From assembly GCA_021513695.1 (NCBI GenBank), contig CP084166.1, positions 512,001 to 576,000 on the forward strand: a stretch of DNA of 64,000 bases, read 5' to 3'. Shown here one piece after another: positions 15,025-53,757 of this stretch (its first letter is position 1; every line of letters starts with the position of its first letter). This DNA comes from Candidatus Heimdallarchaeum aukensis. Its GTDB lineage: Archaea; Asgardarchaeota; Heimdallarchaeia; Heimdallarchaeales; Heimdallarchaeaceae. A model generated the notes under the pieces. That model saw only the letters and a program-made list of their open reading frames with translations, made no database searches and was not told the origin of the DNA. Both the position numbers and the translations under genes were made by a program.

Positions 15025-16260
15025 GTGAAAAAAATATATAGAATTCCTTTATTACAAGTAAAAATAATTCATGCATTACAAGATAACCCTTTGGCTTCTT
15101 ATGAAGAGATAGCAAAAAAGGTTAAAATTCCTCTTACCACACTATACAGGAAAATAAGATCACTAGAAGAAAAGAAGATCATTAGAAACACTCTTTCATC
15201 CAAAATAGCTGAAAAAATAGGTTTAACCCGCTATACATTTGAATTTAAGATAAAGTCACTTGAACAGTTTCAACTAATGCAGCTTGCTTTTCATGAGCAT
15301 CCTTTTACTTATCATTATAACAGATTTTACGGAAACCAATTTGGTTTTTATGCTAAATTTGACATTCCTGAAGGAGGAATAAAGTATTTTGAATTATTCT
15401 TAAAAGAATTAATAAATAGAGAAATGTGTGAAAGTTACAACCTATATGCATCTACAGGCCATTGGGTGGATATTCAAGAGCCTATACCAAACACAAAGCT
15501 AAATCCAAAAAGTTTCAACCTTGTTGAATTCTGGGGAAAAAGACAAGAGATGAAAGAAACAAATGGAGAGAAAATTGAGAAAATTGATATAAAAAAATTA
15601 CATCCTATTCAACTTTTAATACTTCGAGATATAAACAGGAATGCTAAGCAGAAACAGAAAGACCTTTTAGAACTTTACAAAAAAGCTTTAGAGAATGAAA
15701 AAGTGAATTCAGAAGAAACAAAAATCATTCCAGAGGCATACAAATCATTCATTGAAGAATTTTTTGAAGGTAGAAGTCATGAAGCAATAATGATGGACTT
15801 TAATCGTAAATATAAATTCGTTTTTGAAAATTTAGTCACTAATTTCAGAATTAACTTTTCTCGTAACTATTTTGAGATATATCCTATGCAAGCTTATGTT
15901 ATTAAAGATATAAGCTCTGAAGAAAGTTTCCAAACTTTAAACTTATTCAAAAAATATAGACCACCTTTCAGAGCAGGTATTGATATATTAAACAGAGGAT
16001 TGTTCATTGCTGTTACTCTCCCACCGTTCTATGCTTCAAGATTCTCATACTTAATATATAGTTCCTATTCTGATTTTAAATTTTATAACATGGACTTCTT
16101 TGGAGAGCATGGTGTGGCTTATCCTTTCTATGTAAATAACTTTGATCCAATAAAAAATGAATGGAAAACAGATAAAAAATGGATAGTAGATGATGTATTT
16201 TCAAGAATTGATGGAAAACTAAACAATGGTAATTATGGTGAAAACAACAATCACCATTAA
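15025..16260 (+). CDS. Protein with N-terminal Lrp/AsnC-type winged HTH and uncharacterised C-terminal domain
   Basis: IIHALQDNPLASYEEIAKKVKIPLTTLYRKIRSLEEKKII matches the AsnC-type HTH pattern. The start codon is uncertain (GTG abutting the SD). Confidence 0.45.
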   Translation: MKKIYRIPLLQVKIIHALQDNPLASYEEIAKKVKIPLTTLYRKIRSLEEKKIIRNTLSSKIAEKIGLTRYTFEFKIKSLEQFQLMQLAFHEHPFTYHYNRFYGNQFGFYAKFDIPEGGIKYFELFLKELINREMCESYNLYASTGHWVDIQEPIPNTKLNPKSFNLVEFWGKRQEMKETNGEKIEKIDIKKLHPIQLLILRDINRNAKQKQKDLLELYKKALENEKVNSEETKIIPEAYKSFIEEFFEGRSHEAIMMDFNRKYKFVFENLVTNFRINFSRNYFEIYPMQAYVIKDISSEESFQTLNLFKKYRPPFRAGIDILNRGLFIAVTLPPFYASRFSYLIYSSYSDFKFYNMDFFGEHGVAYPFYVNNFDPIKNEWKTDKKWIVDDVFSRIDGKLNNGNYGENNNHH

Positions 16261-16399: not shown

Positions 16400-17512
16400 A
16401 TGGTATCGAGTGAGTTAGAATTATACATAAAAATAGCGCAAATAACTCTTATAACATTTATTCTTGCATACTTTATCTACAGAAGAATAAAAGATAAGAT
16501 TACTGGATTTAACTGGTTTATTTTCTTATTCATTTCAGCCTTAACTCAAGGTATTGTTGAAATGATTTTATATGGATTAACATCAAATGGTTCTATTTCA
16601 GAAAATTCTACTCTACAAGAAGTACATATCATTCCTTATGCAGTTGGGTTATTCACCTTATTCTTATATTGCGAACTAATAATGAGAGAAAGACCAAATG
16701 AGATATTATTGAGCTTTATGACTTTACTGATTGGAGCTTATTTAGCAACTTTTTCTCTAGAACTAGCTTTTAACTTAAATACAGATATCCTTCCTAAATA
16801 TCGTTTAAATAGATTAATTTTCAACATTTTCCAATTTTTTGTTCTATTGGAAGCAACACTAATGTTTGCACTGGATGCGAAGAGAGTTGAATATAAGAAA
16901 CTTAGAAGAATTTCTCTTGTTATAGCAATTGCAATAGGTACATCTGCAGTTTTTGCTTTCTTCAAAATATTGGAATACTGGGTTCTTCCTTTTTCCTTTT
17001 ATGGAGCGATACCTTATGGAATTTTATTTGGAGTTTTAGCAATTGAATTTATTGCCAATCCATTCTTTGTTTATTTGCTACCGTCAAGAATAAACAAAGT
17101 TGTAGTCATAGACGATTCTGGAGTTTTACTATTTGCTGTTAGAGTTGGAAAAGAAGAACCTGACATAATCGAAGACACATTACTTTCTGGAACACTTTCT
17201 GCTATGAAATCAGTAATAAAAGAAACAACAGGAACACAAACAGAACTTCAAAAAATAGAGTTCAGAGATAAATATATGATAGTTGCAGAGAATGAAGAAA
17301 AAACAATTTCTACGATTATTATATGCGACAGAGATTCATTTATGCTACAAACAGCAGCAAGACAATTTATCAACGCCTTTGCTAAAGAGTTTAAAGAACA
17401 TTTAGAAAAGTTTGATGGATCAATTGGTAGGTTTGGTGCTGCTACACATCTAGTGCGACGTATCTTTCCTTTTGTTCCACCTAAGGAAATAGTAGAAGTA
17501 AAAGAAAAGTAA
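16400..17512 (+). CDS. Polytopic membrane protein with C-terminal roadblock/LC7-like domain (paralog 1 of 4)
   Basis: About 6 TM helices are followed by a ~120-aa cytoplasmic domain (VVVIDDSGVLLFAVRVG...TLLSGTLSAMKSVIKETTG...YMIVAE...) with roadblock-like alternation. It is paralogous to 19373.., 25404.. and 52633... Confidence 0.5.
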   Translation: MVSSELELYIKIAQITLITFILAYFIYRRIKDKITGFNWFIFLFISALTQGIVEMILYGLTSNGSISENSTLQEVHIIPYAVGLFTLFLYCELIMRERPNEILLSFMTLLIGAYLATFSLELAFNLNTDILPKYRLNRLIFNIFQFFVLLEATLMFALDAKRVEYKKLRRISLVIAIAIGTSAVFAFFKILEYWVLPFSFYGAIPYGILFGVLAIEFIANPFFVYLLPSRINKVVVIDDSGVLLFAVRVGKEEPDIIEDTLLSGTLSAMKSVIKETTGTQTELQKIEFRDKYMIVAENEEKTISTIIICDRDSFMLQTAARQFINAFAKEFKEHLEKFDGSIGRFGAATHLVRRIFPFVPPKEIVEVKEK

Positions 17513-17651
17513 TAAGTTAGGGTTCAATTCTCTTTTTTTTAGTTTCTCTTTTATTTGAATATTAATCAAAAAGTTGGAAGAAAAAAATAAATAGTTGTTT
17601 AAGAAGCTAGAGAATTAGCAAAACTTAATCATTAAAAAATTGTAGATAAAA

Positions 17652-18545
17652 ATGGAGATTGAAGAAAAAGATAAAGTAAAACATGCTAATAAGGATAAAG
17701 AGAATACGATATACGGAGATTTTAGATCTTTAGGTTTCCTATTTCTTTTTACAGTCTTAACGGCAACAATTCTTTCTCTCGTTGATTTTTCTGTCTTAAG
17801 TAATGCAAAATGGCTTTTATCCTTATTGTTTGTTGCAGATCTAATTTTGTTAATATTTATACTACTTGTTCATAGGAATTTTATAACTATAACAGGTTTC
17901 ATAATTACAGAACAATTAAAAGAGATGTTTATTCCAAAGAAAAGAAACAAAGAAAGATTTCTAAAAAAGATTAACAAGTGGAACAGAAAACAAAAATCAT
18001 ATATAAAAGATGCAAAAGAACTTAAAGAATTGATTCCAAAGCTTATTGGATTAACTCTAATTTATTATTTGCTTATTTTCACTATCTTGTTTGATCCCTC
18101 AGCACTAACAGGTTATGGAGCATATTTCACTGTTATGTATTGGGCTTTTATTCTCTTATATGCCTTTGTTTTTCTCTTCATTATGAGATTATTTAATAAA
18201 CATCCCTTAATTTCTGGAGGAATATTTTGGGGTCTAAATGGACTATCTGTTTTTGGTTTAAAAGTACTTAATCCTATTCCTTTGTCTTTATTACTTTATA
18301 TAGCTGGTAAGAAATCATCTGAAATGAATGATGCAATCATTAGCATTATGCAAAAAACATTAATTGCTAAATTTATTTTTGCAGTTTTAAATGTTGTTAG
18401 TGTAATTGGTATAATTGTTTATTCTTTTAGAAACGCAATGAACTTTAACTTTAGTCCAGACTTAATTGTTTTTAAAGAACAATCTGCAGAAGACAACAAG
18501 AAAGAATTTCGTGGAACTGATAACCAAATTAACAAAGAAGAATAG
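17652..18545 (+). CDS. Hypothetical polytopic membrane protein
   Basis: Multiple hydrophobic helices and no recognised motif. Confidence 0.35.
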   Translation: MEIEEKDKVKHANKDKENTIYGDFRSLGFLFLFTVLTATILSLVDFSVLSNAKWLLSLLFVADLILLIFILLVHRNFITITGFIITEQLKEMFIPKKRNKERFLKKINKWNRKQKSYIKDAKELKELIPKLIGLTLIYYLLIFTILFDPSALTGYGAYFTVMYWAFILLYAFVFLFIMRLFNKHPLISGGIFWGLNGLSVFGLKVLNPIPLSLLLYIAGKKSSEMNDAIISIMQKTLIAKFIFAVLNVVSVIGIIVYSFRNAMNFNFSPDLIVFKEQSAEDNKKEFRGTDNQINKEE

Positions 18546-18557
18546 ATATTCGCTAGA

Positions 18558-19320
18558 GGTAGTGTCTAGTTTTCTTCCGACAAAAATATTTGTGGGGACT
18601 CTAATAGTAAGATATGAAAACACAAAAACTATCTACTCTTTTTAAGAGATGCAGAGTCCCCAAAAAGATAATAATAAAAGCGATTTATGAATATATTGGT
18701 TCAAAGAATGGTTTGAGGACAGTAGCATGGAAGAATGGTTTAACGCATCAAACATTATGGTATTGGGTAAAGAAGTTCAGGCTCTTTAGGGAAAGTTTAC
18801 ATAGAGTTGTAGCAGAAAGAGGGGGAATACCAGAGATTATAGTAGTTGATGAAACAGAGATTAAGACCTCTCAAGGCTCAATATATCTGTGGTTCGCGTT
18901 AGATCCTTACAACAAGACTTTACTGGGTTTTAGTATTACTAAAGGACGGAGTAATCTTGAATGTTTACTAACTTTCCGTTATTGGTTCAAATGTTGGGGT
19001 TTTAAGCCCCGTATTGTCGTTACAGATGCAGGGGTATGGTATCCTGTCTTACTTCGTCTCGGTATCAAAATCTCTGTTATCAAAGGTGGTTTACGCTCCT
19101 ATATTGAACGTTTTAATGCCACCCTTAAGAGTTATCATTGGTTTCATTCTATTCTTCACTGTACTTGTCCTATCCGTGCCGTCTATGGCTCTACTCATCT
19201 TTCTGGTTTCCTTACTCTCTTTATGCTCCATTTTAATTTCGTTCGTCCTCATCAGAGCTTGGGACATCCTCCCCTTAGTTCTTTTTTACCTAGGAGGTGG
19301 TATAAAAACTAGACACTACC
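18558..19320 (+). mobile_element. IS6-family-like insertion sequence, intact copy
   Basis: There are 16-bp perfect terminal inverted repeats GGTAGTGTCTAGTTTT (18558..18573) and AAAACTAGACACTACC (19305..19320). A 10-bp direct repeat ATTCGCTAGA flanks the element. It is 763 bp with a single transposase ORF. Confidence 0.7.
18614..19312 (+). CDS. IS6-family DDE transposase
   Basis: IVVDETEIKTSQGSIYLWFALD (compare IS6 vDEtyvkv..YLyrAiD), VVTDAGVWYP and FVRPHQSLG are seen. The ~230-aa size is typical of IS6. Confidence 0.7.
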   Translation: MKTQKLSTLFKRCRVPKKIIIKAIYEYIGSKNGLRTVAWKNGLTHQTLWYWVKKFRLFRESLHRVVAERGGIPEIIVVDETEIKTSQGSIYLWFALDPYNKTLLGFSITKGRSNLECLLTFRYWFKCWGFKPRIVVTDAGVWYPVLLRLGIKISVIKGGLRSYIERFNATLKSYHWFHSILHCTCPIRAVYGSTHLSGFLTLFMLHFNFVRPHQSLGHPPLSSFLPRRWYKN

Positions 19321-19372
19321 ATTCGCTAGAACTATCAAAGTTTTTAAATAAGTACTTCTTCCTTTTTCTAAT

Positions 19373-20479
19373 ATGGATTTAAATTTTGTAGTTTCACTTA
19401 CTATCGCAATTTTCATGTTTATTTTAGGAATTATTTTCATAGTTCAATCAATAATTAAGAAAAGAACAGCGTACGTTTTTACTTCTTCAATGTTTATAGG
19501 GATGATTGCTTCTCTTATAGAAGTCTTTAGAGTAAGTAAATTACCTAATTTGGATTTTAATTCAAGCGTTTTACTTGTAATTCATTTATCATTTTGGTGC
19601 TTGATGTATCTACTTTCTTTGATTTTCTTCATTCAGCTTGAAAAAGAAAAAATCTTATCCTATATACTTCCAGTCGTCATGATTATTTATGTTCTACACA
19701 TAACTTTCGGGATTTTTTGGATTTACTCTGGTTCTTTTCCTGATCAAGCTCAGTCAACAATAACTATGTTATGGGACTTAACTTACGCTCTCATGGGAAT
19801 ACTCACTTTCTCTTACGGTGCTTATGTCCATTTTAAAACTGGAATAAAAGCACATGAAAAAGAAGGTTATTTGTTAGGAGGAGCACTCATTTTAATAAGT
19901 ATTGGCTTCCTTTTGGGTTTCATTAAAGATTTAGGTGTAAAAGTTGATATTCAAAGTATTCCTGTTGGAGAAGTACTTAAATTAATAGGTATTTTCACCT
20001 TTATTATATTCTACATTGCAAAACCAGATTACATCTTCAGATTACCTTTCCAAATTACTTCAGTTCTTGTATTTAACAGACTTGGAATGTTAATCTATTC
20101 AGCACAATATTTGACTGAAGATGGTGATGAGGAAATAGATCCTGATGATACATCGATGGAGCTAATTACTGCAGCAGTAAATGCATTTTCAACCTTTATG
20201 AAAGAAACAACTGGAAGCGAAGAACCTCTAAAAAGAGTAAAAACAGGAGATAAACTTCTGATAGTAGAACAAGGAGATAAATGTTCTATAGCAATAATCT
20301 CTACCTCTTCTAGTTATTTCATGATACAAAGCATGAGGAAAGTAATTAAGGAACTAGAAAAGAGATATGAAAAAGAACTAGAACTTGATTATACTGACTC
20401 TACCTTTTTCAATGAAGTACCGAAACTTATTTCCTACTCTTTTCCATTCTTGGGAATACCAAAAAAAGAATTGTATTAA
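19373..20479 (+). CDS. Polytopic membrane protein with C-terminal roadblock/LC7-like domain (paralog 2)
   Basis: Same architecture as 16400... The C-terminal domain reads VLVFNRLGMLIYSAQ...MELITAAVNAFSTFMKETTG...LLIVEQGDKCSIAIIS. Confidence 0.5.
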   Translation: MDLNFVVSLTIAIFMFILGIIFIVQSIIKKRTAYVFTSSMFIGMIASLIEVFRVSKLPNLDFNSSVLLVIHLSFWCLMYLLSLIFFIQLEKEKILSYILPVVMIIYVLHITFGIFWIYSGSFPDQAQSTITMLWDLTYALMGILTFSYGAYVHFKTGIKAHEKEGYLLGGALILISIGFLLGFIKDLGVKVDIQSIPVGEVLKLIGIFTFIIFYIAKPDYIFRLPFQITSVLVFNRLGMLIYSAQYLTEDGDEEIDPDDTSMELITAAVNAFSTFMKETTGSEEPLKRVKTGDKLLIVEQGDKCSIAIISTSSSYFMIQSMRKVIKELEKRYEKELELDYTDSTFFNEVPKLISYSFPFLGIPKKELY

Positions 20480-20495
20480 AAAAAATCTTTTTTTT

Positions 20496-21617
20496 CTATT
20501 CTTCTTCTTTTTCAAAAGGAAAGACATAATTTAGTTTAAGATCATCGCGTAAAAAGATTAGGTCTCGAGCAATACTATCATTAATTGGTACACCATGCTC
20601 TCTTACTCTCTTTTCTGCTTCGTATTCTTTTTCTCCAGCAGTATAAATTCTTGATTCACCAGGAGCTTTTTTAGAGTTCCTGAGCTCTCTACATATCGAA
20701 CCAGAAATCTTTTTGAAAATATTTACATCAATAAAATGTTCTACGTTTATCGCAATAAAGAAATGACCAATCATAAAGTGCCTAAAAGAACCATCTTCGT
20801 TCAACCCACTTAAATCCTTTAGGAATTTTCCGTTCTGTAAAGCTGAAGATAATATCTCTACAACAGTAGAATAACCATACCCTTTATGTCCAGATAATTC
20901 TTCTCCCTTTCCTCCAAGAGGTAAAAGTGCAGCCTTTCCATTCACAAAATCAGAGATGAGCTGCTCAGCATCAGTTCTATACTCTCCAGTTTCAGTGTCT
21001 ATTACACAACCTAAAGGAAGATCTTTATTTTCCCGAGCATAAACTTCAACTTTTCCTCTTTGAATAATAGATGTAGCACAATCCAAAACAAAAGGAAAAG
21101 CTTCATCAGTAGGTATACCAAAAGTCAAAGGATTAGTGCCTAACATAGGCTCAACACCAAAAGTAGGTGCAACAGCAGGACGAGCATTTGTACCAGTAAT
21201 CCCTATACAGTTCTCTTTTACAGCCATAAGAGCATAATAACCAGCAATACCATAATGAGTACCATTACGAACAACAACCATACCTATACCAAACTTCTTA
21301 GCCTTAGAAATAGCAAGCTCCATAGCTTTATAGGAAATATAATGACCATTACCATGATGGGCATCAATAACAGCAATAGCATCTTTATCTTTAACAATTT
21401 CATATTTGCTAATAAGATGTTGCTTTCTCTTAATACGGTCATAATAATATTTTAATCGCTGAACACCATGACTTGTTATCCCGCGAAGATCTGACTCAAT
21501 TAAAACATCAGCACTAACTTGAGCTTCCTCAACAGGATAACCCAAAGAAACAAAAACATCTCGAATAAAATCATGCAATAAATCAACTGAAACATATTTC
21601 TGATTGGAATCTGTCAT
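20496..21617 (-). CDS. Ldh_2-family oxidoreductase (malate / L-sulfolactate dehydrogenase type)
   Basis: RGITSHGVQRLKYYYDRI, ARPAVAPTFG and GGKGEELSGHKGYGYS are typical of the Ldh_2 family. Confidence 0.7.
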   Translation of the reverse strand: MTDSNQKYVSVDLLHDFIRDVFVSLGYPVEEAQVSADVLIESDLRGITSHGVQRLKYYYDRIKRKQHLISKYEIVKDKDAIAVIDAHHGNGHYISYKAMELAISKAKKFGIGMVVVRNGTHYGIAGYYALMAVKENCIGITGTNARPAVAPTFGVEPMLGTNPLTFGIPTDEAFPFVLDCATSIIQRGKVEVYARENKDLPLGCVIDTETGEYRTDAEQLISDFVNGKAALLPLGGKGEELSGHKGYGYSTVVEILSSALQNGKFLKDLSGLNEDGSFRHFMIGHFFIAINVEHFIDVNIFKKISGSICRELRNSKKAPGESRIYTAGEKEYEAEKRVREHGVPINDSIARDLIFLRDDLKLNYVFPFEKEEE

Positions 21618-21959
21618 CTCATTCTTAACTTAAAATTAGTCAATATAAATATTGTTTAAAATAGAAAAAAAATAAAAGAAATTCAAAAAATAAATTTCCA
21701 AAAAAAATTATCTGTATTATCTTTACATTGCTAAATTAAATATAAAATATCCATACAAATAGTTTTTTAGATACTACAACAGAATATCGCATTTATTATC
21801 ATTTATAAAGAAGTAGCATTTTTAAAGAAATTTTTTTTTTGTTTTTTTTTGAAGCATACTGTTTTGCAAAAAAATGTAGAAAATGATAAATAAATCTTTG
21901 AAACAACTAAATAAAAAACTTGAAACATAACAATTAACATTTACTTTTTTGAGAAAAAG

Positions 21960-22523
21960 TTATGATTTTTTCATTTCAAGCTGATTTACCAACCATGTAA
22001 ATGCTTCGTTTACTCCTGTTCCGTTTATTGCACTGCAGTCAAACACTGCAAAAGTTCTATCTTTCATTTCTAAATGTAGTCCTAGCAATTGTATTAGCAT
22101 TGGTGCTTGTATTGATTCTGGTAGATCTTGTTTATTTGCTATTATCAGGCAAGGTATTTTTTCTAAATACGGATTGTTAAATACATGAACTTTTAATATA
22201 TCTCTCGCTTCTGGCAATCTTTCTATATCTGCTGCATCTATTACAAATATTACTGCTGAACTTCCTGGGTAATGCACTTCCCATAGAAATCTGAACTGTT
22301 TTTGTCCTGCTACATCTACTATAGTAATATTCCAATCTGCAAAGTTTACTGTATCTATGTTTTGTCCTATTGTTGGTACTGTATCTTGAAAGTCTCCTGT
22401 GTTTACATATTTCATTAATGTAGTCTTACCTGCTGAATCTAAGCCTAAAACGATAATTTTAGCCTTTTTTTCTGATTTAAGTTTTTTCCTTAACCAAGAA
22501 GAAAACGATAGTTTAGAGCTCAT
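21960..22523 (-). CDS. Arf/Arl-family small GTPase
   Basis: An N-terminal amphipathic helix is followed by the P-loop GLDSAGKTT, then DVAGQ (the WDxGGQ equivalent) and NKQD. The protein is 187 aa. Confidence 0.8.
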   Translation of the reverse strand: MSSKLSFSSWLRKKLKSEKKAKIIVLGLDSAGKTTLMKYVNTGDFQDTVPTIGQNIDTVNFADWNITIVDVAGQKQFRFLWEVHYPGSSAVIFVIDAADIERLPEARDILKVHVFNNPYLEKIPCLIIANKQDLPESIQAPMLIQLLGLHLEMKDRTFAVFDCSAINGTGVNEAFTWLVNQLEMKKS

Positions 22524-22615
22524 TGTGTATTATTTCTTTATTCTAATTACCCATTAATAAAAATTGTCTAAGTCTTCAACAATAAAAAAAGAAAGTGATA
22601 AATCTTAAAAAAAAA

Positions 22616-24808
22616 TTATTGGTGTTTCTTTGCTAATTCTATTAGTTCAGGAAAGTCCATTCCTAGTTCTTTTAATTTTTCTATAGTAGGTACACCGTTT
22701 TCTGTCCATCCTCTTCTTTCATATACAGCTTTTTTCAACTTTTCATACCTTTCTTCTCTGTATTTTCTTATTGCGGCCATCTTTTCTTCTACTGTCATGT
22801 TTGTTGGATCTACACCTACTTTTTCTTTTAGTTCTTTAAGGTAGTATTTGTCTTCTCTGGACAGGTATTCTTCTTTTGTTACTGGACCCATAGCTCTAAA
22901 GGGTATAGTGTCTAATTCTTTGTAAGTTACACCTTCTGGAATGAAAAGTAAATTCATTACTCTTTGGAAGTTATAGACTCTTTCACTCATTTTAATATAT
23001 TCTCTAGAATCTATATTATTACCTGTTACACTATTGAAGTATTGGACATAATTTAGAACGTGTTCTGGCACTTTTGCAGGGTCGGCTAGATCTTCAGGAA
23101 CAGTCATTCCATGCTTTTCTATCTTTCCTTCTGCAAATTCTTTATTATCTTCTGGAACAATATCGTTCCAAGGTAACTTACATAGACCTAATAGTCCAAA
23201 GGAAGTTCTCCACATTGGGAACCACCATAGAGCTTCTGCTTTTTGTTCGAAAGTGGGCATAAAGTTATGCACCATGTCTAGAAAGATTAACCATGCTTCA
23301 TCGTGCTGTGGTCCCTTGAGTGTAAGACCATATCCTCCTTGTTGTGCAAGTGACTCTTTTGTCATATATTCGCTAAATTCTAGACCTTTAGATTCCATTC
23401 CTATATCGTCCAAAAGTTTGGCTTCTTCCTCACTCAAGTTAAACTCTTTCTTGAAGTACTCTTTCATGTATCTAATTCCTTTACCGAATATTTTACCGAA
23501 CCCATCTCCTTTTGCTACTTGGTGAATAACTTCCATTGCTCCTTCAAAATTGCCCCAAGAGAGATCTATTCCTCCAGTTCTTTCTTTGTTTAATATTCCG
23601 TATTCGTAGCACTCCATACAGAAGGCCATACCTGTTCCTACACTAATAGTATCTAAACCATAGTTATCACAATAGAAATTAACTTCAATAACATGGTCTG
23701 GGTCCCACATGTACCAGTTAGAACCTACTCCAGCAGCTGTTTCATATTCTGGACCGTCGACAGTTACTTTTTGACCTTTGTATGGTCCAGTTTTACATTC
23801 AAAACTACTCACACCATGAGTACATCCTACTGTACATCCTTTCCAACATGGGTCTGGTCCTTTTTCAAATCTCTTATAATAAGCTTCTTTACCTATTTTT
23901 TCTGCTTGTGGGTCAGAACCAAATTTGAAGTTCTTTGTTGGTAAAAGGTCAAAATCATTCATTATTGGAATCAAATGTATAGTTCCAATATTTCTCATAT
24001 CGTTTTGCTTTGGATCGAGTTCAGTTATTTCTTTACTGTGTCTCTTGGCTACTTCTTTCTCTGCTTCAGGATTAGCAGGATTGTTAGATTTGACGTTAAC
24101 ATTGCTTTTTCTTACAACTAGAGCTTTTATTTTCTTATTTCTAAATACAGTTCCTGTTCCTCCTCTTCCGGCTTGTTTATATCTTACATATCCTCTTTTA
24201 CCGTCAAACCAACTGAAATTTAAGCAACCCATATAAGCATTTTCTGCTCCAGGACCTGCAGATACAACAGAAATATTTCTTTTATCTTTTTCATCTACTG
24301 CATATCTCTCAGTAAGTATTTTTCCTATCTGAAAAGTTTCTGAAGGTAAATCTTCTGCTTCTTCGATGATTATTTTTCCATTATCTCCATCAATAAAAAT
24401 GACTAATTCTTTTTCTGCTTTACCTTGAATGGCCATAGCATCGAAACCTGCAAATTTGAGAAAAGGACCAAAATATCCTCCAACGTTTGAATCAACCAAA
24501 ATACCAGTTAATGGAGAAATGGCTGTTACAATACTTTTACCTGAACCAGGATAGTTGGTTGTTCCACCTAATGGTCCAGAAGCTATACAAAGAACATTAT
24601 CTGGGTCATCCCATTTTACTTTTTTGTCTTTAGGAATATATTTCCAAGTTAGCCAAAGATCAAATCCCCTTCCACCTATGAATTTTTCTTTCATTTCTTC
24701 TGTAACATCTTCTATTTTTGCTTCTAACGTTTCTAAATTAATGTACAATGTTTTGTTAGCATATCCTTTATCTATTACTGGAACTTCATAATTTATCTCT
24801 TTAATCAT
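22616..24808 (-). CDS. Aldehyde:ferredoxin oxidoreductase (AOR) family tungsten enzyme
   Basis: The N-terminal section reads ANKTLYINLETLEAKIEDV..EKFIGGRGF. The size is ~730 aa. The Cys cluster is DPCWKGCTVGC. Confidence 0.75.
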   Translation of the reverse strand: MIKEINYEVPVIDKGYANKTLYINLETLEAKIEDVTEEMKEKFIGGRGFDLWLTWKYIPKDKKVKWDDPDNVLCIASGPLGGTTNYPGSGKSIVTAISPLTGILVDSNVGGYFGPFLKFAGFDAMAIQGKAEKELVIFIDGDNGKIIIEEAEDLPSETFQIGKILTERYAVDEKDKRNISVVSAGPGAENAYMGCLNFSWFDGKRGYVRYKQAGRGGTGTVFRNKKIKALVVRKSNVNVKSNNPANPEAEKEVAKRHSKEITELDPKQNDMRNIGTIHLIPIMNDFDLLPTKNFKFGSDPQAEKIGKEAYYKRFEKGPDPCWKGCTVGCTHGVSSFECKTGPYKGQKVTVDGPEYETAAGVGSNWYMWDPDHVIEVNFYCDNYGLDTISVGTGMAFCMECYEYGILNKERTGGIDLSWGNFEGAMEVIHQVAKGDGFGKIFGKGIRYMKEYFKKEFNLSEEEAKLLDDIGMESKGLEFSEYMTKESLAQQGGYGLTLKGPQHDEAWLIFLDMVHNFMPTFEQKAEALWWFPMWRTSFGLLGLCKLPWNDIVPEDNKEFAEGKIEKHGMTVPEDLADPAKVPEHVLNYVQYFNSVTGNNIDSREYIKMSERVYNFQRVMNLLFIPEGVTYKELDTIPFRAMGPVTKEEYLSREDKYYLKELKEKVGVDPTNMTVEEKMAAIRKYREERYEKLKKAVYERRGWTENGVPTIEKLKELGMDFPELIELAKKHQ

Positions 24809-24928
24809 ATTAATACACCCGAGAATATCGTTATAAATACGAAAAAAATCAACTATATAATTTTAACTCTATCTCGTCAAGTATTAAAGAAAACTAACTT
24901 TTTCTTTTAACTAAAAAGAAAGTTAACT

Positions 24929-25348
24929 TTACGAAGAATTATCAATCTTAAATTTATTAGCATTTTTGGGTTCGTGTCCAGCTTCAAAAGATTGTATCTC
25001 AAGAGTATATCTGTCAGGATCATTAAAGAAGATGTTATAAATTTGATATTTTTCGTACATACTAGGCTCTTTAGTTAGATTGACACCTTTCTCTTTAAGG
25101 TATTTCGCCCAAAGATTCACTTCATCTGGTGTTTCAACAACTAATGTTAAACATGTTTTCTCAGGATTTGAAATTTCTTCACTTGTTTCACAGAATCCCC
25201 AGTAACCATTTGAACCTATGTTATAAATTATACAGTTTGTCTGCTCTAAGGCAACTTCAAGTTCTAATAGACCAGAATAGAACTTTTTATTTTCTTCTAA
25301 ATTTTTTGTTTTCAAAAAGGTAATAGGATAAATAATTTTTGGAAGCAT
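24929..25348 (-). CDS. VOC/glyoxalase-family protein
   Basis: Size and pattern (FYSGLLELEV..., C-terminal DPDRYTLEI) resemble the vicinal-oxygen-chelate fold. The match is weak. Confidence 0.4.
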   Translation of the reverse strand: MLPKIIYPITFLKTKNLEENKKFYSGLLELEVALEQTNCIIYNIGSNGYWGFCETSEEISNPEKTCLTLVVETPDEVNLWAKYLKEKGVNLTKEPSMYEKYQIYNIFFNDPDRYTLEIQSFEAGHEPKNANKFKIDNSS

Positions 25349-25403
25349 ATATTAAATAAGTTATTCTTCTTTTAAAAATTTCTTGAGAATGTATGGATTT
25401 TTT

Positions 25404-26516
25404 TCAAACTCCAACTGTTAGTTTTGATTCATCTACAAATGGGAAGTACAATGGAATGTATTTCACTGCATCATCGAAAACAGAGGCATCTCCGCTAAAA
25501 CATACAATCTGCTCTCTAAACATTGAATTAAACTTGTTTACAAAATGTTCAAGTGAAGTGTCAAATATCCTTACCCTTCTATCAACTATTAACACTCCGA
25601 TAATATCATCTTTCTCTTTGGTTATCATGACTCTATCTTTTAGTTCAACACATTTTAATAACTGATAGGATGAATTGGTTACTTCAGAAATAAAATGAGC
25701 AAAAGCGTTAATCATTCCCCCAATTAACAAACCCTCTGATTCTTTTTTAGAATAGTTTGAAGCAGAGAAAAGAGTTGTTCCATTTTTATTAATTATTAAG
25801 AAGTTAAAAATCTCTGCAGAAGTGAATAAGACAAATTTAGGGTCAATTAAATAAATGACCAAAGTTACACCGAGAGCTAACCCAAAACCTATAGCACCAT
25901 ATGTTTCTAAAGGAACTACATGTTCCAAAAATTCCAAAATAGCCACTATAAAAGCTATAAAGAAGCTTATCCATAATAGTAATGTATGATATTGAGCTTT
26001 TTTACCTACACTCTTAACAAAGGTAAAAGTTATTCCTACTAAACATACTGTAACAACATATAGTTGAAAAAAATCTAAAAACCAAATATATAAACAGTCA
26101 TTCTTTGTTGGAACCTTCAAATTCGTAGAGATCGGGGGTAAATCAAAGAAAATATTTATCAAATAAGTAACAAATAAAGAAAAAATAATAATGTAACCTG
26201 CTTGAACTACTCTACGATCCCAAGCGTTGAAGTTACTAAAATGTATTAAAATATATAGAAATACAAGAGCATAAGGAATAATCTCTAAAGAAGGTAAATA
26301 ACTATTTTCTAAATATGCCCACTGATAACCTGCTACACGGGCAAAATAGAAAAAGAATTCTACTACACTTTGTATAATCGCCAGAATTAATGCAGCAATT
26401 AAATTTTTATAACCTTGAACTTTGTTTACTGTGCTCCGATAAGAAAAAACACCTAACATAATCAAAATAATAACAACTTGAAATAGTTTGAATATCGCTT
26501 GGCTTAGAGTTTCCAA
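25404..26516 (-). CDS. Polytopic membrane protein with C-terminal roadblock/LC7-like domain (paralog 3)
   Basis: Same architecture. The C-terminal domain reads NFLIINKNGTTLFSAS...GGMINAFAHFISEVT...RVMITKEKDDIIGVLIV. Confidence 0.5.
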   Translation of the reverse strand: METLSQAIFKLFQVVIILIMLGVFSYRSTVNKVQGYKNLIAALILAIIQSVVEFFFYFARVAGYQWAYLENSYLPSLEIIPYALVFLYILIHFSNFNAWDRRVVQAGYIIIFSLFVTYLINIFFDLPPISTNLKVPTKNDCLYIWFLDFFQLYVVTVCLVGITFTFVKSVGKKAQYHTLLLWISFFIAFIVAILEFLEHVVPLETYGAIGFGLALGVTLVIYLIDPKFVLFTSAEIFNFLIINKNGTTLFSASNYSKKESEGLLIGGMINAFAHFISEVTNSSYQLLKCVELKDRVMITKEKDDIIGVLIVDRRVRIFDTSLEHFVNKFNSMFREQIVCFSGDASVFDDAVKYIPLYFPFVDESKLTVGV

Positions 26517-26647
26517 AGTAAATCAATTAATTGATTATATTTCTATTATATTAAATTTATGTAAAAATGCCAAAGTTACATTTTAGAAAAGATATTGAAA
26601 AAATATACTAAAACTTCTTGAATTACATATTTTTCTTTAATGAGATA

Positions 26648-26935
26648 TCATCCCCCTGCAACAAAAGGAAGTATCGATATTTCAGTTTTATCTTCAGTTA
26701 CTAGATAAGTTGACAGCTCTTCATGATGAATAGTTTTGCTATTTATCATTATATTATAAAAAGAATGTAGCTTTTTATTTGTAAATAGGAGTCCATCAAG
26801 CTCTGGATACGTCTTAGTTAAAAATTCTATTGCTTCTAAAACAGTTATTTCCTTATCTTCTAATTCAATTTCGACTTCTGCTTTATTTCCTAAAGTAGAC
26901 CTTAACTGACCAAACAAGCGAAAAATAACTCTCAT
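26648..26935 (-). CDS. MoaD/ThiS-family ubiquitin-like small protein (SAMP-like), C-terminal Gly-Gly
   Basis: MRVIFRLFGQLRSTLG...TVLEAIEFLTKTYPEL...ISILPFVAGG* is a beta-grasp pattern ending with a diglycine. Confidence 0.7.
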   Translation of the reverse strand: MRVIFRLFGQLRSTLGNKAEVEIELEDKEITVLEAIEFLTKTYPELDGLLFTNKKLHSFYNIMINSKTIHHEELSTYLVTEDKTEISILPFVAGG

Positions 26936-27000
26936 TCTTTTTCCTCTGATAAGATAAAGTAGATTAAAAGAATAAAATTGTTATGTTTTGTCAATTCTTT

Positions 27001-27561
27001 TTATATAGAATTTACCTCAAAGAATTTGACTATATTTTCTATAAGAGTAATAAAAGCTCTTTCTACATTTTCTCCTGTTTTAGCTGAAGTTTCTATATAA
27101 GGTACTTCGAATCCACTCCAATTACTTAGGCTTTTGGCATAATCTGCAGCATATTCATATGGTACTGCATTAGGAGTTGAATCACGAAGATCAGATTTGT
27201 TTCCAATTAAAAGCATAGGAACAATCTTATTTTTGTTATTCTTGATTAACTCATGAATCCAATTAGGTAATAATTCATATGTTTCAGGTCTTGAAATGTC
27301 AAAAACTAGCAAAGCACCTGAAGTTCCTCGATAATATACTTCTCTCACTGCAGAAAAACGTTGTTGTCCTGCTAAATCCCATATCTGTAGAGTATACTCA
27401 ATATTATTTAGTAGCATTTTCTTTACTGCAAAGTCTGCACCTACTGTCATGGCATATCCTGATTCAAAAGTTTCTCCTAAATATCGACGTCTTAACGATG
27501 TTTTACCTACTGCTCCTTCACCAAGCAATGAAACTTTAAAGATTCTCTGCACTTTTTTCAT
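27001..27561 (-). CDS. Rab/Ras-family small GTPase
   Basis: G1 is GEGAVGKTSL. The switch II motif is WDLAGQQRF. GNKSDL and ETSAK are also seen. The protein is 186 aa. Confidence 0.8.
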   Translation of the reverse strand: MKKVQRIFKVSLLGEGAVGKTSLRRRYLGETFESGYAMTVGADFAVKKMLLNNIEYTLQIWDLAGQQRFSAVREVYYRGTSGALLVFDISRPETYELLPNWIHELIKNNKNKIVPMLLIGNKSDLRDSTPNAVPYEYAADYAKSLSNWSGFEVPYIETSAKTGENVERAFITLIENIVKFFEVNSI

Positions 27562-37321: not shown

Positions 37322-37639
37322 ACCATTTTTAATAGGATAAGTAAAATTACATCTTTTTTCCTTTTCCTGTTTTTTCCCATTCACTAAACTTATCTATTAG
37401 TTCGTCAATAGCATGTGTTATCTCTTCAGTGATTTTTTCAACAATAATTAATTTGTCATCTTCAATTCGAATAGACAAAATAGAACCGAGTTCAACCAAC
37501 CATAATTCAAGTTCATTAAGATCTTCAAAACCTAATTTTTCCTGTAAAGTAATTAAAGGTATTTTAGAATTATTAGATAGGACTTTGAATAATTTTTAGC
37601 TCTTTCTATTTCAATATCGCGAGAATCAAAATAGTTCAT
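37322..37639 (-). pseudogene. Duplicated 3' tail fragment of the 40618..43875 paralog (frameshifted)
   Basis: About 290 bp is near-identical to 40618..40906. It reads [22 protein letters not shown] and then, in another frame, ...GFEDLNELELWLVELGS.LSIRIEDDKLIIVEKITEEITHAIDELIDKFSEWEKTGKGKK. Its ATG overlaps the TGA of the upstream gene (ATGA). Confidence 0.5.
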
Positions 37640-40335: not shown

Positions 40336-40617
40336 TTTTCAACCCTAGATACTCTAACTCTAAAGTAAATGCTTATTGAACATTTTCAAGATTTTAAATT
40401 TGAGTCACTTAATATTAAACAAAATACTAATTAACTTTTTCTACTAAACTTTGATTAATGTATAATCTGCACACATTAGGATGAAAGAAACTAAACTGTT
40501 TTTAGAGAAAAAATTCAAAATAAATGAACCACATTCAGTTATAACTAAAAAAATTCAGTGATTTTAATTAATATGTATGCTTCACAAAAACAACATGAGA
40601 TTTTCAACATTCTTTTT

Positions 40618-43600: not shown

Positions 43601-43875
43601 CTGTAGCTTGAAGTTAAATTATGCTTATCAATTGAGCGATAATTATCATATTCTTTTCCATTCTCTGTTTTATTGTTATTAAATTTAGAAGCCTTTTCAT
43701 CTACATAATTATCTATTAGGTGAAAAGTTGGAGTAAGAAAAAGAAAAATAACTAAAGAAACAATAATTCTTTTATAGTTTGGAAATATATTGTTTAATAT
43801 TTTCATTTCTAGAACAAGTATATACATTACAATAAAAAAATAAAAGTTTTTCTTCACTATTTCTTTTCTTTTCAT
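40618..43875 (-). CDS. Receptor-like type-I membrane protein paralog (beta-helix + TSP3-like repeats + TM + long coiled-coil cytoplasmic region + conserved C-terminal module)
   Basis: Same domain order as 37636..40335. The TM helix is IVLSCLLSFLVIGSVTTTILLI. The C-terminus is ...AIDELIDKFSEWEKTGKGKKE. The true start may be the internal Met of MKILNNIF (signal-like). Confidence 0.65.
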   Translation of the reverse strand: MKRKEIVKKNFYFFIVMYILVLEMKILNNIFPNYKRIIVSLVIFLFLTPTFHLIDNYVDEKASKFNNNKTENGKEYDNYRSIDKHNLTSSYRQINHGSSCQKAIAERNNAKETRYIVHSPIEINSEEDFVKFGFPGSGTEADPYIIENYEVSTGDTEYLENSCGIVIRYVSSFVIIRNCFIQGYEVGISSETRAGGVIVENCTLLYNQYGVLVHQSGDSLIKNNYSANNSGFGILVSESSNVTIIKNTCITNGAGSIGVRDNKKIKIFYNNLEKTTNDWASCLWSSGNSEIVISDNLINGATSDGLYLERCNNVVISNNNIYNSTNFAISYGFEVSNSLIYNNLFCGTGLGGVRIGERGDYNIVFNNSFLKIQDNNEDYGTNTYWYSPTLLVGNLWEDWDGTTNFYSIYGNKIGDIFPRRVASVENDSDSDGMEDAWEIVYNLDDSKADSDGDGLSNLEEYQWMANPNFNDTDGDGLNDYDEVIFGGCIRDGDFDDDKLSDYEEVKIFHSFPYKKDSDSDGLTDYQEVIVFLTDPIDSDTDGDGLSDYEEIYAYHTDPTKNDTDDDKFNDYDEIIIYGSDPLNKLSNPRAKKIKIVLSCLLSFLVIGSVTTTILLIKKKQREKIIQLKNEYNKQFLEFNKFKEKIDEYLLQSYSPDNFKEWVNSAKQLDNIIGSYRSKFNLFKVIIGKKNIIEFEKVKREINDFIEKLSQIKTELERKITDEYILLLNKILEKKQQLLSDLQQINSYVQKNDYKKIDLDNYNKRIAKVFFEFKELSNEYLIYAKEIEKIDIRNALLSSKIYEIKNIDEQISKEELNAYINQIKIHKKQTFDEFLEIEKEIINQQDLNININYEKVKKLLEITDGFRDFFQSKLEILSKQITNEERKDLLEELQEIENKRQEVRDLIYLYPLILLDKKGEELRKEIDNLFVYSLKGKITESELYFKEFDEKLANWKENYSRVMNTETVGELSSNGIEQYNELKEKIEEKINYFDSRDVEIERAKEFFKVLSTTSEIPLFTLQEKLGFEDLNELELWLVELGSFLSIRIEDDKLIIVEKITEEITHAIDELIDKFSEWEKTGKGKKE

Positions 43876-52632: not shown

Positions 52633-53757
52633 CTAAATTATCAATACTCGTTTAAGATTTTGCTCAACTATTTTTTTGAGTAATTTTTCTGAAGTTTCAT
52701 CGAAATTTACAAATCCAGGGTCAATTTTTGAAGCCAGAACAGGATTTTCTTGTAATTCTCTTAAAAGCACATTTAATACAGTCTCTAAAGTTTTATCAAA
52801 TCTTTCTCCAAAAACATATGCTTGGAGAAATCCTGTGGCTGTCGTTCCTATAACTTTGTCTTTGTAAACGACAGTATTGAGTTCAGATTTTCTTTCCATT
52901 ATTTCTTCTAAAGCTTTGGTTACACCAGAGATTAAACCAGAGGTTAAATCTATAGAAACTTCTTTATTAATTTCTTCTTTATCAGAAGTAAAATCATTAT
53001 AATAAACAGGTAATCCACTATCAGTGGTAATCAACAATTGATTTATCTTAGCATTAGATATCATTATATTAAAAGGATCTATTAACAGGGTTATAGACCA
53101 AATAAACCATCCTGCAGCCATTAGAAAAGGTCGTATCGCTCTGAGTATATAACTACTAGAAAAAACTGCAAAAATAACCCAGATAATTATGATGATAAAT
53201 CCAACCACTTGCACAAATAACTGCTTTTTAATGTCTGGATCTTCTGTTCTAAAAAGCTTTGTTGAAATAGGAAGAATAAAAGAAACAATGAAAAAAAGTA
53301 ACATAGGAGCTGTAAGAGCAGGTATCCATATACTATACTTCGCAGTCCAAGCGCCAAGAGTTTCAGAATAACTCAATTCAGTAAAATCAGGTAAAATAAA
53401 AGCTAAAAATAATGCTCCGCCCAAAAAACTAACGATGTTAACAACGGGATGTAGACGATTTGTTTTGAAGTAGATAAAGGAGTAAAAAACGAGAATCATA
53501 CCAAGAATTAATAGACAGTTAAAAAATGACCAAATGGATGAAATTAAGTAAAAGTTATCAAAAATCACCAAGTTTTTAGTAAAAAAGGATGTTATGAACC
53601 GACCTACAGAATCAAATGCCCAAAAAACATAACTCATTCCCAGTAGAAAATGAGAAAGAAAATGTGTTTGTTTGTATGTCTTAAATAAAATAAAACTGCT
53701 TGTAATGAAAGTCAGTTGTTCAAACAAAAATAATCCTATCGAGTAATAAGAAATCAT
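52633..53757 (-). CDS. Polytopic membrane protein with C-terminal roadblock/LC7-like domain (paralog 4)
   Basis: Same architecture. The C-terminal domain reads LLITTDSGLPVYYNDF...TSGLISGVTKALEEIMERK...DKVIGTTATGFLQAYVFGE. Confidence 0.5.
   Translation of the reverse strand: MISYYSIGLFLFEQLTFITSSFILFKTYKQTHFLSHFLLGMSYVFWAFDSVGRFITSFFTKNLVIFDNFYLISSIWSFFNCLLILGMILVFYSFIYFKTNRLHPVVNIVSFLGGALFLAFILPDFTELSYSETLGAWTAKYSIWIPALTAPMLLFFIVSFILPISTKLFRTEDPDIKKQLFVQVVGFIIIIIWVIFAVFSSSYILRAIRPFLMAAGWFIWSITLLIDPFNIMISNAKINQLLITTDSGLPVYYNDFTSDKEEINKEVSIDLTSGLISGVTKALEEIMERKSELNTVVYKDKVIGTTATGFLQAYVFGERFDKTLETVLNVLLRELQENPVLASKIDPGFVNFDETSEKLLKKIVEQNLKRVLII

Follow-up and report, generated by a model that had tools for sequence, protein, structure and literature searches.

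A predominantly Asgard protein family with a seven-transmembrane bundle and a cytoplasmic longin domain, from a conserved syntenic block of Candidatus Heimdallarchaeum aukensis

Asgard genomes are rich in small GTPases and in longin and roadblock proteins. To our knowledge, nobody has established which regulator serves which Asgard GTPase, and we know of no account of how such soluble switches reach the membrane in cells whose internal compartments are few or absent. A locus of Candidatus Heimdallarchaeum aukensis, lying within the 64-kb stretch of DNA analyzed here (the window), brings these questions together: what are the four paralogous membrane proteins encoded there, and do they act with the Arf-like and Rab-like GTPases encoded nearby? 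An initial annotation had read the region as a eukaryote-like, trafficking-type cluster containing four membrane-tethered, roadblock-like paralogs of about 370 aa.

Domain architecture of the four paralogs

Open reading frames for all four paralogs (FAM1 to FAM4), the two GTPases, and the Gly-Gly protein were confirmed at the positions given in the initial annotation; they are listed here with their neighbors:

15025-16260, + strand: wHTH protein (AsnC/MarR-like N-terminus), 411 aa, conserved upstream of FAM1
16400-17512, + strand: FAM1, 7TM-longin paralog 1, 370 aa
18558-19320, + strand: compact IS between FAM1 and FAM2, with perfect 16-nt terminal inverted repeats
19373-20479, + strand: FAM2, 7TM-longin paralog 2, tandem partner of FAM1, 368 aa
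20496-21617, - strand: Ldh_2-family dehydrogenase; sulfolactate dehydrogenase is its top NCBIfam hit, short of the cut-off
21960-22523, - strand: Arf-family small GTPase (PF00025, 1.3e-47, 162 bits versus 22.3)
22616-24808, - strand: aldehyde:ferredoxin oxidoreductase (AFOR) family protein, a tungstopterin enzyme; metabolic gene inside the block
24929-25348, - strand: Glyoxalase/VOC-family protein, between AFOR and FAM3
25404-26516, - strand: FAM3, 7TM-longin paralog 3, 370 aa
26648-26935, - strand: ThiS/MoaD/SAMP-type beta-grasp protein ending in Gly-Gly (PF02597 ThiS, 3.9e-10, 40.6 bits)
27001-27561, - strand: Rab-like small GTPase (PF00071, 2.3e-46, 157.8 bits)
52633-53757, - strand: FAM4, the most divergent 7TM-longin paralog of the four, 374 aa

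Pairwise identity among FAM1 to FAM4 was 20-29% over co-linear alignments, and the family HMM matched each of them at E<=1e-58, identifying them as real homologs. The true start of FAM3 is probably Met20 (nt 26459), which gene callers elsewhere use, yielding 351 aa.

The paralogs had been described as having about 6-7 TM helices followed by a soluble domain of about 120 aa. An AF2 model (pLDDT 80, pTM 0.79) preserved this layout and revised both figures, to exactly seven TM helices and a soluble domain of about 140 aa; in FAM1, the 7TM bundle covers aa 5-224 (nt 16412-17071) and the longin domain aa ~229-366 (nt ~17084-17497). The N-terminus is placed outside and the C-terminus inside. With seven TM helices in this orientation and GPCR-type helix packing, the bundle has a GPCR fold in the AF2 model, which was built on a 36-sequence alignment and whose likeness to GPCRs could be explained by training bias. 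None of the 7tm_* Pfam families matched the four paralogs or 93 family members, indicating no detectable GPCR sequence homology, and matches to 7TMR-DISM_7TM (PF07695; 2 of 93 members, best E 1.1e-3) and HisKA_7TM (1 of 93) stayed under the gathering threshold. The most conserved residues of the bundle lie at the cytoplasmic ends of TM3 and TM7, adjoining the longin domain, with Glu or Asp in 77% at the TM3 end and the pattern Y-x-x-N/D-P-x-Y-x-Y at the TM7 end. Class A GPCRs have E/DRY and NPxxY sites, which these positions may resemble.

The assignment of the C-terminal domain to the roadblock/LC7 (MglB-type) fold did not hold. DSSP analysis of two AF2 models gave the order beta-beta-alpha-beta-beta-beta-alpha-alpha (E231-238, E243-249, H257-277, E285-288, E291-297, E303-309, H314-336, and H343-355), which is that of a longin domain and not the alpha-beta-beta-alpha-beta-beta-beta order of roadblock proteins. 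As in the longin structural class, there is no N-terminal helix and there are two C-terminal helices; the domain opens with beta-1, and the helix preceding it is TM7 and not an N-terminal amphipathic helix of its own. Furthermore, the closest solved structures were longin domains, the best structural matches being GTPase-binding longins. Roadblock/LC7 (PF03259) scored 13.4 bits with the full protein and 16.1 bits with the isolated domain, in a single member, against a cut-off of 23. The Pfam longin families (Intu_longin_1, Fuz_longin_1, and Sybindin) also stayed below their gathering thresholds (best, 16.1 bits versus 23.7), and hits to Fuz_longin_1 (E 1.4e-4; 6 of 93 members) and Sybindin (1 of 93) are suggestive only. 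Scanning 14 and 93 members with Pfam, and comparing the profile with PDB sequences, returned only sub-threshold matches, so neither domain can be placed by sequence methods alone.

The family comprises 2,207 clusters at 50% identity, and tandem paralog pairs are frequent among its loci. It is predominantly Asgard; we do not claim that it is strictly so, because one member (P0195, Deferrimicrobium MAG) is labeled as bacterial and others are labeled as Bathy- or Korarchaeota. No Pfam or NCBIfam model recognizes it. Collectively, these findings give good support to a large, previously unannotated domain architecture, a 7TM bundle with a C-terminal cytoplasmic longin domain, and we consider the architecture and fold, taken apart from any GTPase function, to be highly probable. 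Published Asgard longin and roadblock proteins (Tran et al. 2024, PMC10933270; the asCOG roadblock/longin families of Liu et al. 2021) are soluble or are fused to a GTPase, to TRAPPC3, or to two-component domains, and the Asgard studies considered here make no mention of a polytopic membrane domain on them; in the present family, by contrast, the longin forms the C-terminal end of a 7TM protein.

Gene order and the Gly-Gly protein

Related loci were gathered with tighter sub-alignments, the 93-sequence family alignment being too divergent. The order HTH–FAM1–FAM2–Ldh2–Arf–AFOR–glyoxalase–FAM3–ThiS–Rab is common to Heimdallarchaeaceae. With few exceptions among the loci, the Ldh_2 gene and FAM1/FAM2 are convergently oriented, and the tightest conserved neighbor of the Arf gene is AFOR, directly downstream of which it lies in 11 related loci. 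The IS between FAM1 and FAM2, which contains an rve-type integrase ORF (18614-19312), is not part of the system; the FAM1-FAM2 gap is only 222 nt in Ca. H. endolithica.

FAM3, ThiS, and Rab had been noted as a co-directional block. They do share a strand, with gaps of 131 and 65 nt and FAM3 last of the three, but the run extends to seven genes (Rab-ThiS-FAM3-Glyoxalase-AFOR-Arf-Ldh2) and takes in the metabolic genes AFOR, Glyoxalase, and Ldh2. The Gly-Gly protein, described in the initial annotation as MoaD/SAMP-like and matched here by PF02597, scored below the NCBIfam cut-offs for SAMP1 (48.7 bits, <60) and moaD_arch (42.9 bits, <49.5). It is most simply a putative ordinary archaeal MoaD/SAMP-type sulfur carrier or modifier. 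These sub-cut-off scores, together with the position of its gene two genes from that of the tungstopterin enzyme, make a role as MoaD no less likely than one in protein modification.

These observations bear on the proposal that the locus is a co-regulated, eukaryote-like trafficking module, in which the Rab cooperates with a modifier of the ubiquitin type and with roadblock-type regulators tethered to the membrane, and the modifier conjugates to or regulates the system. In its favor are the short gaps of the co-directional Rab-ThiS-FAM3 trio, its recurrence in L001 and L021, and, in L007 and L010, the retention of Rab and ThiS close to a family member despite an inversion-like rearrangement. 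In L007, however, Rab, ThiS, and FAM1 are parted by unrelated genes, among them split TPP-enzyme genes and genes on the opposite strand. The proposal is further weakened by the longin identity of the supposed roadblock domain, by the plausible MoaD role of the Gly-Gly protein, and by the loss of the ThiS linkage outside Heimdallarchaeaceae, where no ThiS gene lay beside the distant family members in the sampled loci. Moreover, the block that holds Ldh_2, AFOR, and glyoxalase is conserved in its entirety. Rather than a dedicated trafficking operon, the 16-27.5 kb region is a conserved syntenic block with metabolic genes interleaved, and we regard the module as quite unlikely.

Small GTPases near family members

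The Arf-like and Rab-like GTPases were confirmed by their PF00025 and PF00071 matches, and no further GTPase was found in the window. The closest structures to the Arf-like protein were Arf1/Arf2 (E ~4e-35). It starts with MSSKLSFSSWLRKK and has no Gly2 myristoylation site; its N-terminus is basic and amphipathic-looking, to go by the residues. Among solved structures, the Rab-like protein was closest to a Thorarchaeota Rab (1.1e-38), followed by Rab1/Ypt1 and Rab7 (~1e-33 for Rab1B and Rab7); it ends in ...KFFEVNSI, with no C-terminal Cys prenylation motif. The case for the Arf-like protein as the partner of FAM1/FAM2 was weakened: the Arf gene tracks AFOR, and L021 keeps FAM1-FAM2-Ldh2-AFOR without it.

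Across the family, the reported association with small GTPases recurred only in part. A small GTPase lay within 5 kb of a family member in 5 of 18 independent contexts, with 13 lacking one. Independent arrangements with a GTPase beside a family member were seen in L015, L036, L046, and L050, and a distant clade has a co-directional pair 210 nt apart. In 16 of these contexts, six GTPases fell within 5 kb and none beyond. With L051 and L052 included, the near and far sequence amounted to about 168 kb and 112 kb, which puts the chance of all six lying near at 0.6^6 (P~0.05), a marginal enrichment. Adjacency was strong only for the FAM1/FAM3 orthogroups, and within Heimdallarchaeaceae GTPase linkage is inseparable from general synteny. 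Genes of ~316 aa adjoining members in L051 and L052 were rejected as a conserved partner, since they are related neither to one another nor to family members.

The absence of GTPases from most contexts agrees with an alternative that we consider somewhat unlikely, namely, a 7TM sensor whose longin is a generic interaction or output module unrelated to small GTPases. Such a protein could pass a signal to two-component or other types of regulator, or it could bind a small ligand, and the GTPase neighbors would be coincidental in GTPase-rich Asgard genomes. This would also accommodate the fusion of Asgard longin domains to two-component signaling domains (Liu et al. 2021), a PAS-HisKA kinase 2 kb from a family member in L034, the weak 7TMR-DISM and HisKA_7TM matches, and the conserved wHTH gene upstream of FAM1. 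It is harder to reconcile with GTPase adjacency in four or more independent arrangements, including the distant-clade pair, and with GTPase-binding longins as the best structural matches. Furthermore, Tran et al. (2024, PMC10933270) note that an Asgard GTPase does not as a rule share an operon with its regulator, so absent adjacency is weak evidence.

Possible function and relation to known systems

Eukaryotes use the longin fold to control Rab and Arf GTPases; longin roles independent of GTPases, in SNAREs and adaptor sigma/mu subunits, are known too. Our analysis tentatively favors a reading in which the family members are 7TM sensors or anchors embedded in the membrane, and in which their longin domains, probably in pairs, may dock or regulate small GTPases. 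The 7TM bundle would anchor the protein in the membrane and probably also serve as a sensor, in the manner of prokaryotic 7TM receptors that bear cytoplasmic output domains. The longin domains would form a dimeric platform docking a small GTPase at the membrane, as in TRAPP, Mon1-Ccz1, and SR-alpha, and the platform would control the nucleotide state or location of the GTPase. In many cases the dimer may pair two different paralogs encoded in tandem, such as FAM1 and FAM2, and the Rab-like and Arf-like proteins would be the local GTPase candidates.

Among the 93 members, no column between positions 228 and 256 exceeded 22% Arg, and G241 (98% conserved) is not followed by Pro (P243, 34%). With no conserved Arg finger and no GP motif, a GAP longin of the FLCN/SMCR8/NPRL2 class (PMC12290439) was rejected, and the missing arginine finger points away from a FLCN-type GAP and toward a role as a GEF, scaffold, or effector. 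A role like that of coat adaptors or SNAREs (sigma/mu-adaptin, zeta-COP, or Sec22), in which the longin would regulate no GTPase but would sort or tether membrane cargo, the 7TM part being either cargo or anchor, appears very unlikely. A longin SNARE was rejected, as the proteins lack a coiled coil and carry their domains in the reverse order. Finally, the family might act as receptor-to-GTPase transducers, in which a GPCR-fold 7TM sensor with its own longin platform recruits or activates a Rab- or Arf-like GTPase on signal. The conserved cytoplasmic ends of TM3 and TM7 beside the longin domain fit this reading, which we hold to be unlikely.

Known systems resemble the family in different respects. 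The TRAPP core (Bet5/Trs23, TRAPPC1/C4) and Mon1-Ccz1 are longin-heterodimer Rab GEFs, which bind nucleotide-free Rab and catalyze exchange, are peripheral and multi-subunit, and reach the membrane via other factors, whereas the longin of the family is covalently membrane-embedded and its sequence similarity is sub-threshold. The best fold matches, the frequent tandem pairs, and a Rab1/Rab7-like neighbor are indirect evidence only for a hypothetical dimer with GEF activity. In SR-alpha SRX/SR-beta, the reverse arrangement is found: the TM anchor belongs to the Arf-like GTPase (SR-beta), leaving the longin-like domain soluble. MglA/MglB, the Streptomyces conservon (CvnA membrane kinase, CvnB roadblock, and CvnD GTPase), and Ragulator/LAMTOR use roadblock domains, separate polypeptides, and lipid or partner anchoring, in contrast to the longin topology and single polypeptide seen here. 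An N-out/C-in 7TM bundle with a C-terminal cytoplasmic domain is shared, together with a GPCR-like fold by structure comparison, with 7TMR-DISM proteins and E. coli DgcT/CdgI, which has been described as GPCR-like (PMC10760455); the output of the family is, however, a longin and not a GGDEF, kinase, or phosphatase domain, and there is no extracellular sensor domain. With eukaryotic GPCRs and lysosomal LYCHOS/GPR155 there is similarity of fold only, with neither sequence homology nor heterotrimeric G proteins, and the coupling element would sit within the receptor itself.

By hard-wiring a longin to the membrane via a receptor-like 7TM bundle, the family offers a testable answer to the question of membrane targeting, and the Rab-like and Arf-like neighbors and the FAM1/FAM2 pairing name candidate partners. 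If GTPase coupling is false, the "trafficking cluster" is still a case of conserved gene order with metabolic genes, and a large new architecture merits a family model. If it is true, it bears on the origin of Rab-GEF platforms and of 7TM-receptor signaling. Were the family to act as transducers, it would be a one-polypeptide counterpart, and possibly a forerunner, both of 7TM-receptor-to-G-protein coupling and of membrane-anchored longin/roadblock GTPase platforms such as TRAPP, Mon1-Ccz1, Ragulator, and LYCHOS-GATOR1.

Architecture and fold of the 7TM-longin paralogs

Every open reading frame named in the initial annotation was found in place, and the four proteins of about 370 aa listed below are true paralogs, sharing 20 to 29% identity, co-linear over their full length and each matching the family HMM at an E value of ≤1e-58.

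16400..17512 (+), FAM1
19373..20479 (+), FAM2
25404..26516 (-), FAM3
52633..53757 (-), FAM4

A confident AlphaFold2 model of FAM1 was built from a 36-sequence alignment (pLDDT 80, pTM 0.79). It places seven transmembrane helices at residues 5-32, 37-62, 77-95, 101-124, 136-162, 166-190, and 203-224, followed by a soluble domain with the order beta-beta-alpha-beta-beta-beta-alpha-alpha, which was also obtained when this domain was modeled in isolation (pTM 0.77). Roadblock/LC7 domains differ from the longin topology in having a helix at the N terminus and at most one C-terminal helix (PMC10933270). Since the modeled order is that of longins, the soluble domain is, on these models, a longin. The 50 best Foldseek matches were longin/roadblock proteins only. 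The domain's best structural matches were the TRAPP and Mon1-Ccz1 longin heterodimers; MglB (10.7) and roadblocks (≤10.6) aligned over just 84 to 104 residues. Sub-threshold sequence matches (Trs23, dynein roadblock, Intu/Fuz longin, Sybindin, and MP1) pointed in the same direction. The models show the architecture, topology and fold of the paralogs, and the GTPase-regulator domain initially proposed is right at the superfold level only, its assignment as an MglB-type roadblock being wrong, because the fold matches longin/roadblock proteins while the topology is longin.

Signatures common to the whole family are P228, G241 (98%), L261, G264, and a C-terminal F-P-F motif. The FLCN/SMCR8/NPRL2-type GAP signature comprises a GP motif and an arginine finger (PMC12290439). 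It was sought in the family alignment and not found, arginine reaching ≤22% in every beta1-beta2 column; with both elements missing, the family is unlikely to work as GAPs through an arginine finger of the FLCN type.

A syntenic block with metabolic genes

In the window, which has a GC content of ~30%, FAM1 and FAM2 converge on a co-directional minus-strand run of seven genes (Rab, ThiS, FAM3, glyoxalase, AFOR, Arf, and Ldh_2). Pfam searches bore out both GTPases.

15025..16260 (+), wHTH
20496..21617 (-), Ldh_2 (Ldh2)
21960..22523 (-), Arf-family GTPase (Pfam, 1.3e-47)
22616..24808 (-), tungsten-type aldehyde:ferredoxin oxidoreductase (AFOR)
24929..25348 (-), glyoxalase
26648..26935 (-), beta-grasp ThiS/MoaD protein with a Gly-Gly end (Pfam)
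27001..27561 (-), Ras/Rab-type GTPase (Pfam, 2.3e-46)

Gene-by-gene mapping of 27 related loci onto the window revealed that the entire block, metabolic genes included, is syntenic across Heimdallarchaeaceae at ~50% protein identity, in the order wHTH-FAM1-(FAM2)-Ldh2-Arf-AFOR-glyoxalase-(FAM3-ThiS-Rab). Locus L001 (Candidatus Heimdallarchaeum endolithica PR6, CP084167.1) shares ~94% protein identity with the window, which places the window in a Heimdallarchaeaceae (Asgard) genome. An Arf ortholog was present in 12 of the 14 loci whose downstream sequence extends for 5 kb or more, and L021 keeps the block without it. Wherever sequence permits, the direct neighbor of Arf is AFOR (11 loci), never a family member. 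The ThiS-like protein scored 48.7 bits against SAMP1 (cut-off 60) and 42.9 bits against archaeal MoaD (cut-off 49.5); the ubiquitin-like role first suggested is no likelier than a MoaD-type role, because a tungstopterin enzyme lies two genes off. Given the shared metabolic genes, Arf beside AFOR and the possible MoaD-type role of ThiS, the block is therefore not a dedicated trafficking operon.

Arf lies directly downstream of, and co-directional with, AFOR in the window (21960-24808) and in 11 Heimdall loci (L001, L004, L007, L010, L011, L014, L016-L019, and L023). An apparent association of small GTPases with pterin enzymes also covers L046 (2277-7300), from a distant clade, in which the Rab-like gene preceding a family member has an AFOR-family gene ~1.2 kb upstream; in L038, FdhD and a molybdopterin formate-dehydrogenase-like gene come before the family member. 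The best NCBIfam match of Ldh_2 was L-sulfolactate dehydrogenase (248 bits; cut-off 500), and two split TPP-enzyme genes between Rab and ThiS in L007 (4226-5303; N- and C-terminal TPP domains) resemble sulfopyruvate or phosphonopyruvate decarboxylase. Together these hint at sulfonate or coenzyme-M-like chemistry in the block.

In L007 and L010 the order is Rab, ThiS, FAM1, Ldh2, Arf, AFOR, Glyox, FAM3. Inverting the segment between the oppositely oriented FAM1 and FAM3 in the window (16400-27561) yields this order, which suggests an inversion between these paralogs. Mobile and surface-type features are as follows.

17652-18545, 297-aa multi-TM ORF, immediately left of the IS
18558-19320, compact IS (~763 bp) between FAM1 and FAM2, with an rve-type integrase ORF
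37636-43875, two adjoining large secreted-type proteins (899 and 1085 aa), NosD/beta-helix and bacterial TSP3 repeats
49713-51670, further IS-like ORFs
59043-61805, FG-GAP/beta-propeller protein (920 aa)

Perfect 16-nt terminal inverted repeats (GGTAGTGTCTAGTTTT / AAAACTAGACACTACC) flank the integrase ORF. Because the FAM1-FAM2 gap in L001 is just 222 nt, the IS and the multi-TM ORF look strain-specific. The NosD/TSP3 and FG-GAP proteins look like cell-surface proteins, apparently unrelated to the 7TM-longin finding.

Small GTPases and a proposed mechanism

The Rab-ThiS-FAM3 trio occurs in the window, L001, and L021, and a genuine Rab-Ubl-regulator module was considered as a rival explanation; in L007 and L010 the arrangement is Rab..ThiS..FAM1, with unrelated split TPP-enzyme and opposite-strand genes intervening. 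In L015, FAM1 diverges, at a distance of 75 nt, from the following fusion.

L015 29-3025 (-), N-terminal HEAT-like repeats and C-terminal Rab-like domain, 998 aa

The Rab-like domain of this fusion is 66% identical to the window Rab-like protein and stops abruptly (...LLVFDIT) near the contig end, which may reflect a frameshift or an assembly artefact. In L036 (Kariarchaeaceae), a FAM1-like gene and a Rab-like GTPase converge 30 nt apart without Ldh2 or AFOR; in L046 (clade ~20% identical to FAM1), a co-directional Rab-like gene lies 210 nt upstream of the family member; and the family member of L050 has a Rab-domain protein at a distance of 2.4 kb. A small GTPase has thus been kept beside a family member through several independent rearrangements. 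None was found near FAM4 in the window, or within 5-10 kb in L028, L029, L032, L034, L037, L038, L039, L041, L044, L048, L051, and L052, contexts that include Lokiarchaeota, Hodarchaeales, and Helarchaeota; a 7TM sensor independent of GTPases was considered as another rival. Across 16 independent contexts, the 148 kb lying ≤5 kb from a family member held six GTPases and the 92 kb farther out held none. With L051 and L052 added (~168 kb near versus 112 kb far), the chance of all six being near is 0.6^6, about 0.05, which is suggestive of a GTPase link but not decisive. Asgard GTPases generally lie outside the operons of their longin/roadblock partners, so missing adjacency is weak negative evidence (PMC10933270).

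Family members often occur as tandem pairs: FAM1-FAM2 in the window, L001, L013, and L021, and further pairs in L029, L032, L036, L043, and L010/L040. Longin and roadblock domains typically act as dimers (PMC10933270). The window Rab-like protein is nearest to Thorarchaeota Rab. Next come Rab1/Ypt1 and Rab7, the Rabs that TRAPP and Mon1-Ccz1, both longin heterodimers, have as clients. Because of the tandem pairs, longin dimers, the Rab1/Rab7-like neighbor and the best structural matches, we consider it most likely that the 7TM bundle would serve as a membrane anchor, and probably also a signal sensor, while the cytoplasmic longin domains would pair up as a platform of GEF, scaffold or effector type on which a small GTPase docks at the membrane. 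The third rival weighed was a role like that of adaptors or SNAREs. Collectively, the observation behind the initial annotation is confirmed and its interpretation partly supported.

Extent of the family

When 1.84 billion representatives were searched exhaustively with the family HMM, 2,207 clusters matched at E ≤ 1e-3 and 695 at E ≤ 1e-10. Almost all measure 350-390 aa and align over their full length; a few are bigger proteins with several domains, or longin fragments standing alone. Examples are P0174 (2171 aa; three family longin domains alongside CARDB, TPR, and DUF5915), P0184 (793 aa; a single one behind an MG2-like domain) and a 137-aa stand-alone longin (L051 19271-19684). Source labels are Heimdallarchaeaceae, Kariarchaeaceae, Hodarchaeales/Hodarchaeota, Lokiarchaeota, Helarchaeota, and "Asgard group," with one member each assigned, by label alone, to Bathyarchaeota, Korarchaeota, and Deferrimicrobium. 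Neither Pfam nor NCBIfam assigns any member to a family. The main publications on longin/roadblock and Arf proteins of Asgard archaea (including PMC10933270 and PMC12290439) deal with soluble forms or with fusions to GTPases, and in the literature searched we found none that combines Asgard longins with transmembrane helices. The 7TM-longin proteins, akin both to Asgard longin regulators and to prokaryotic 7TM receptors with output domains, form a large family without annotation whose candidate partners are named and testable.
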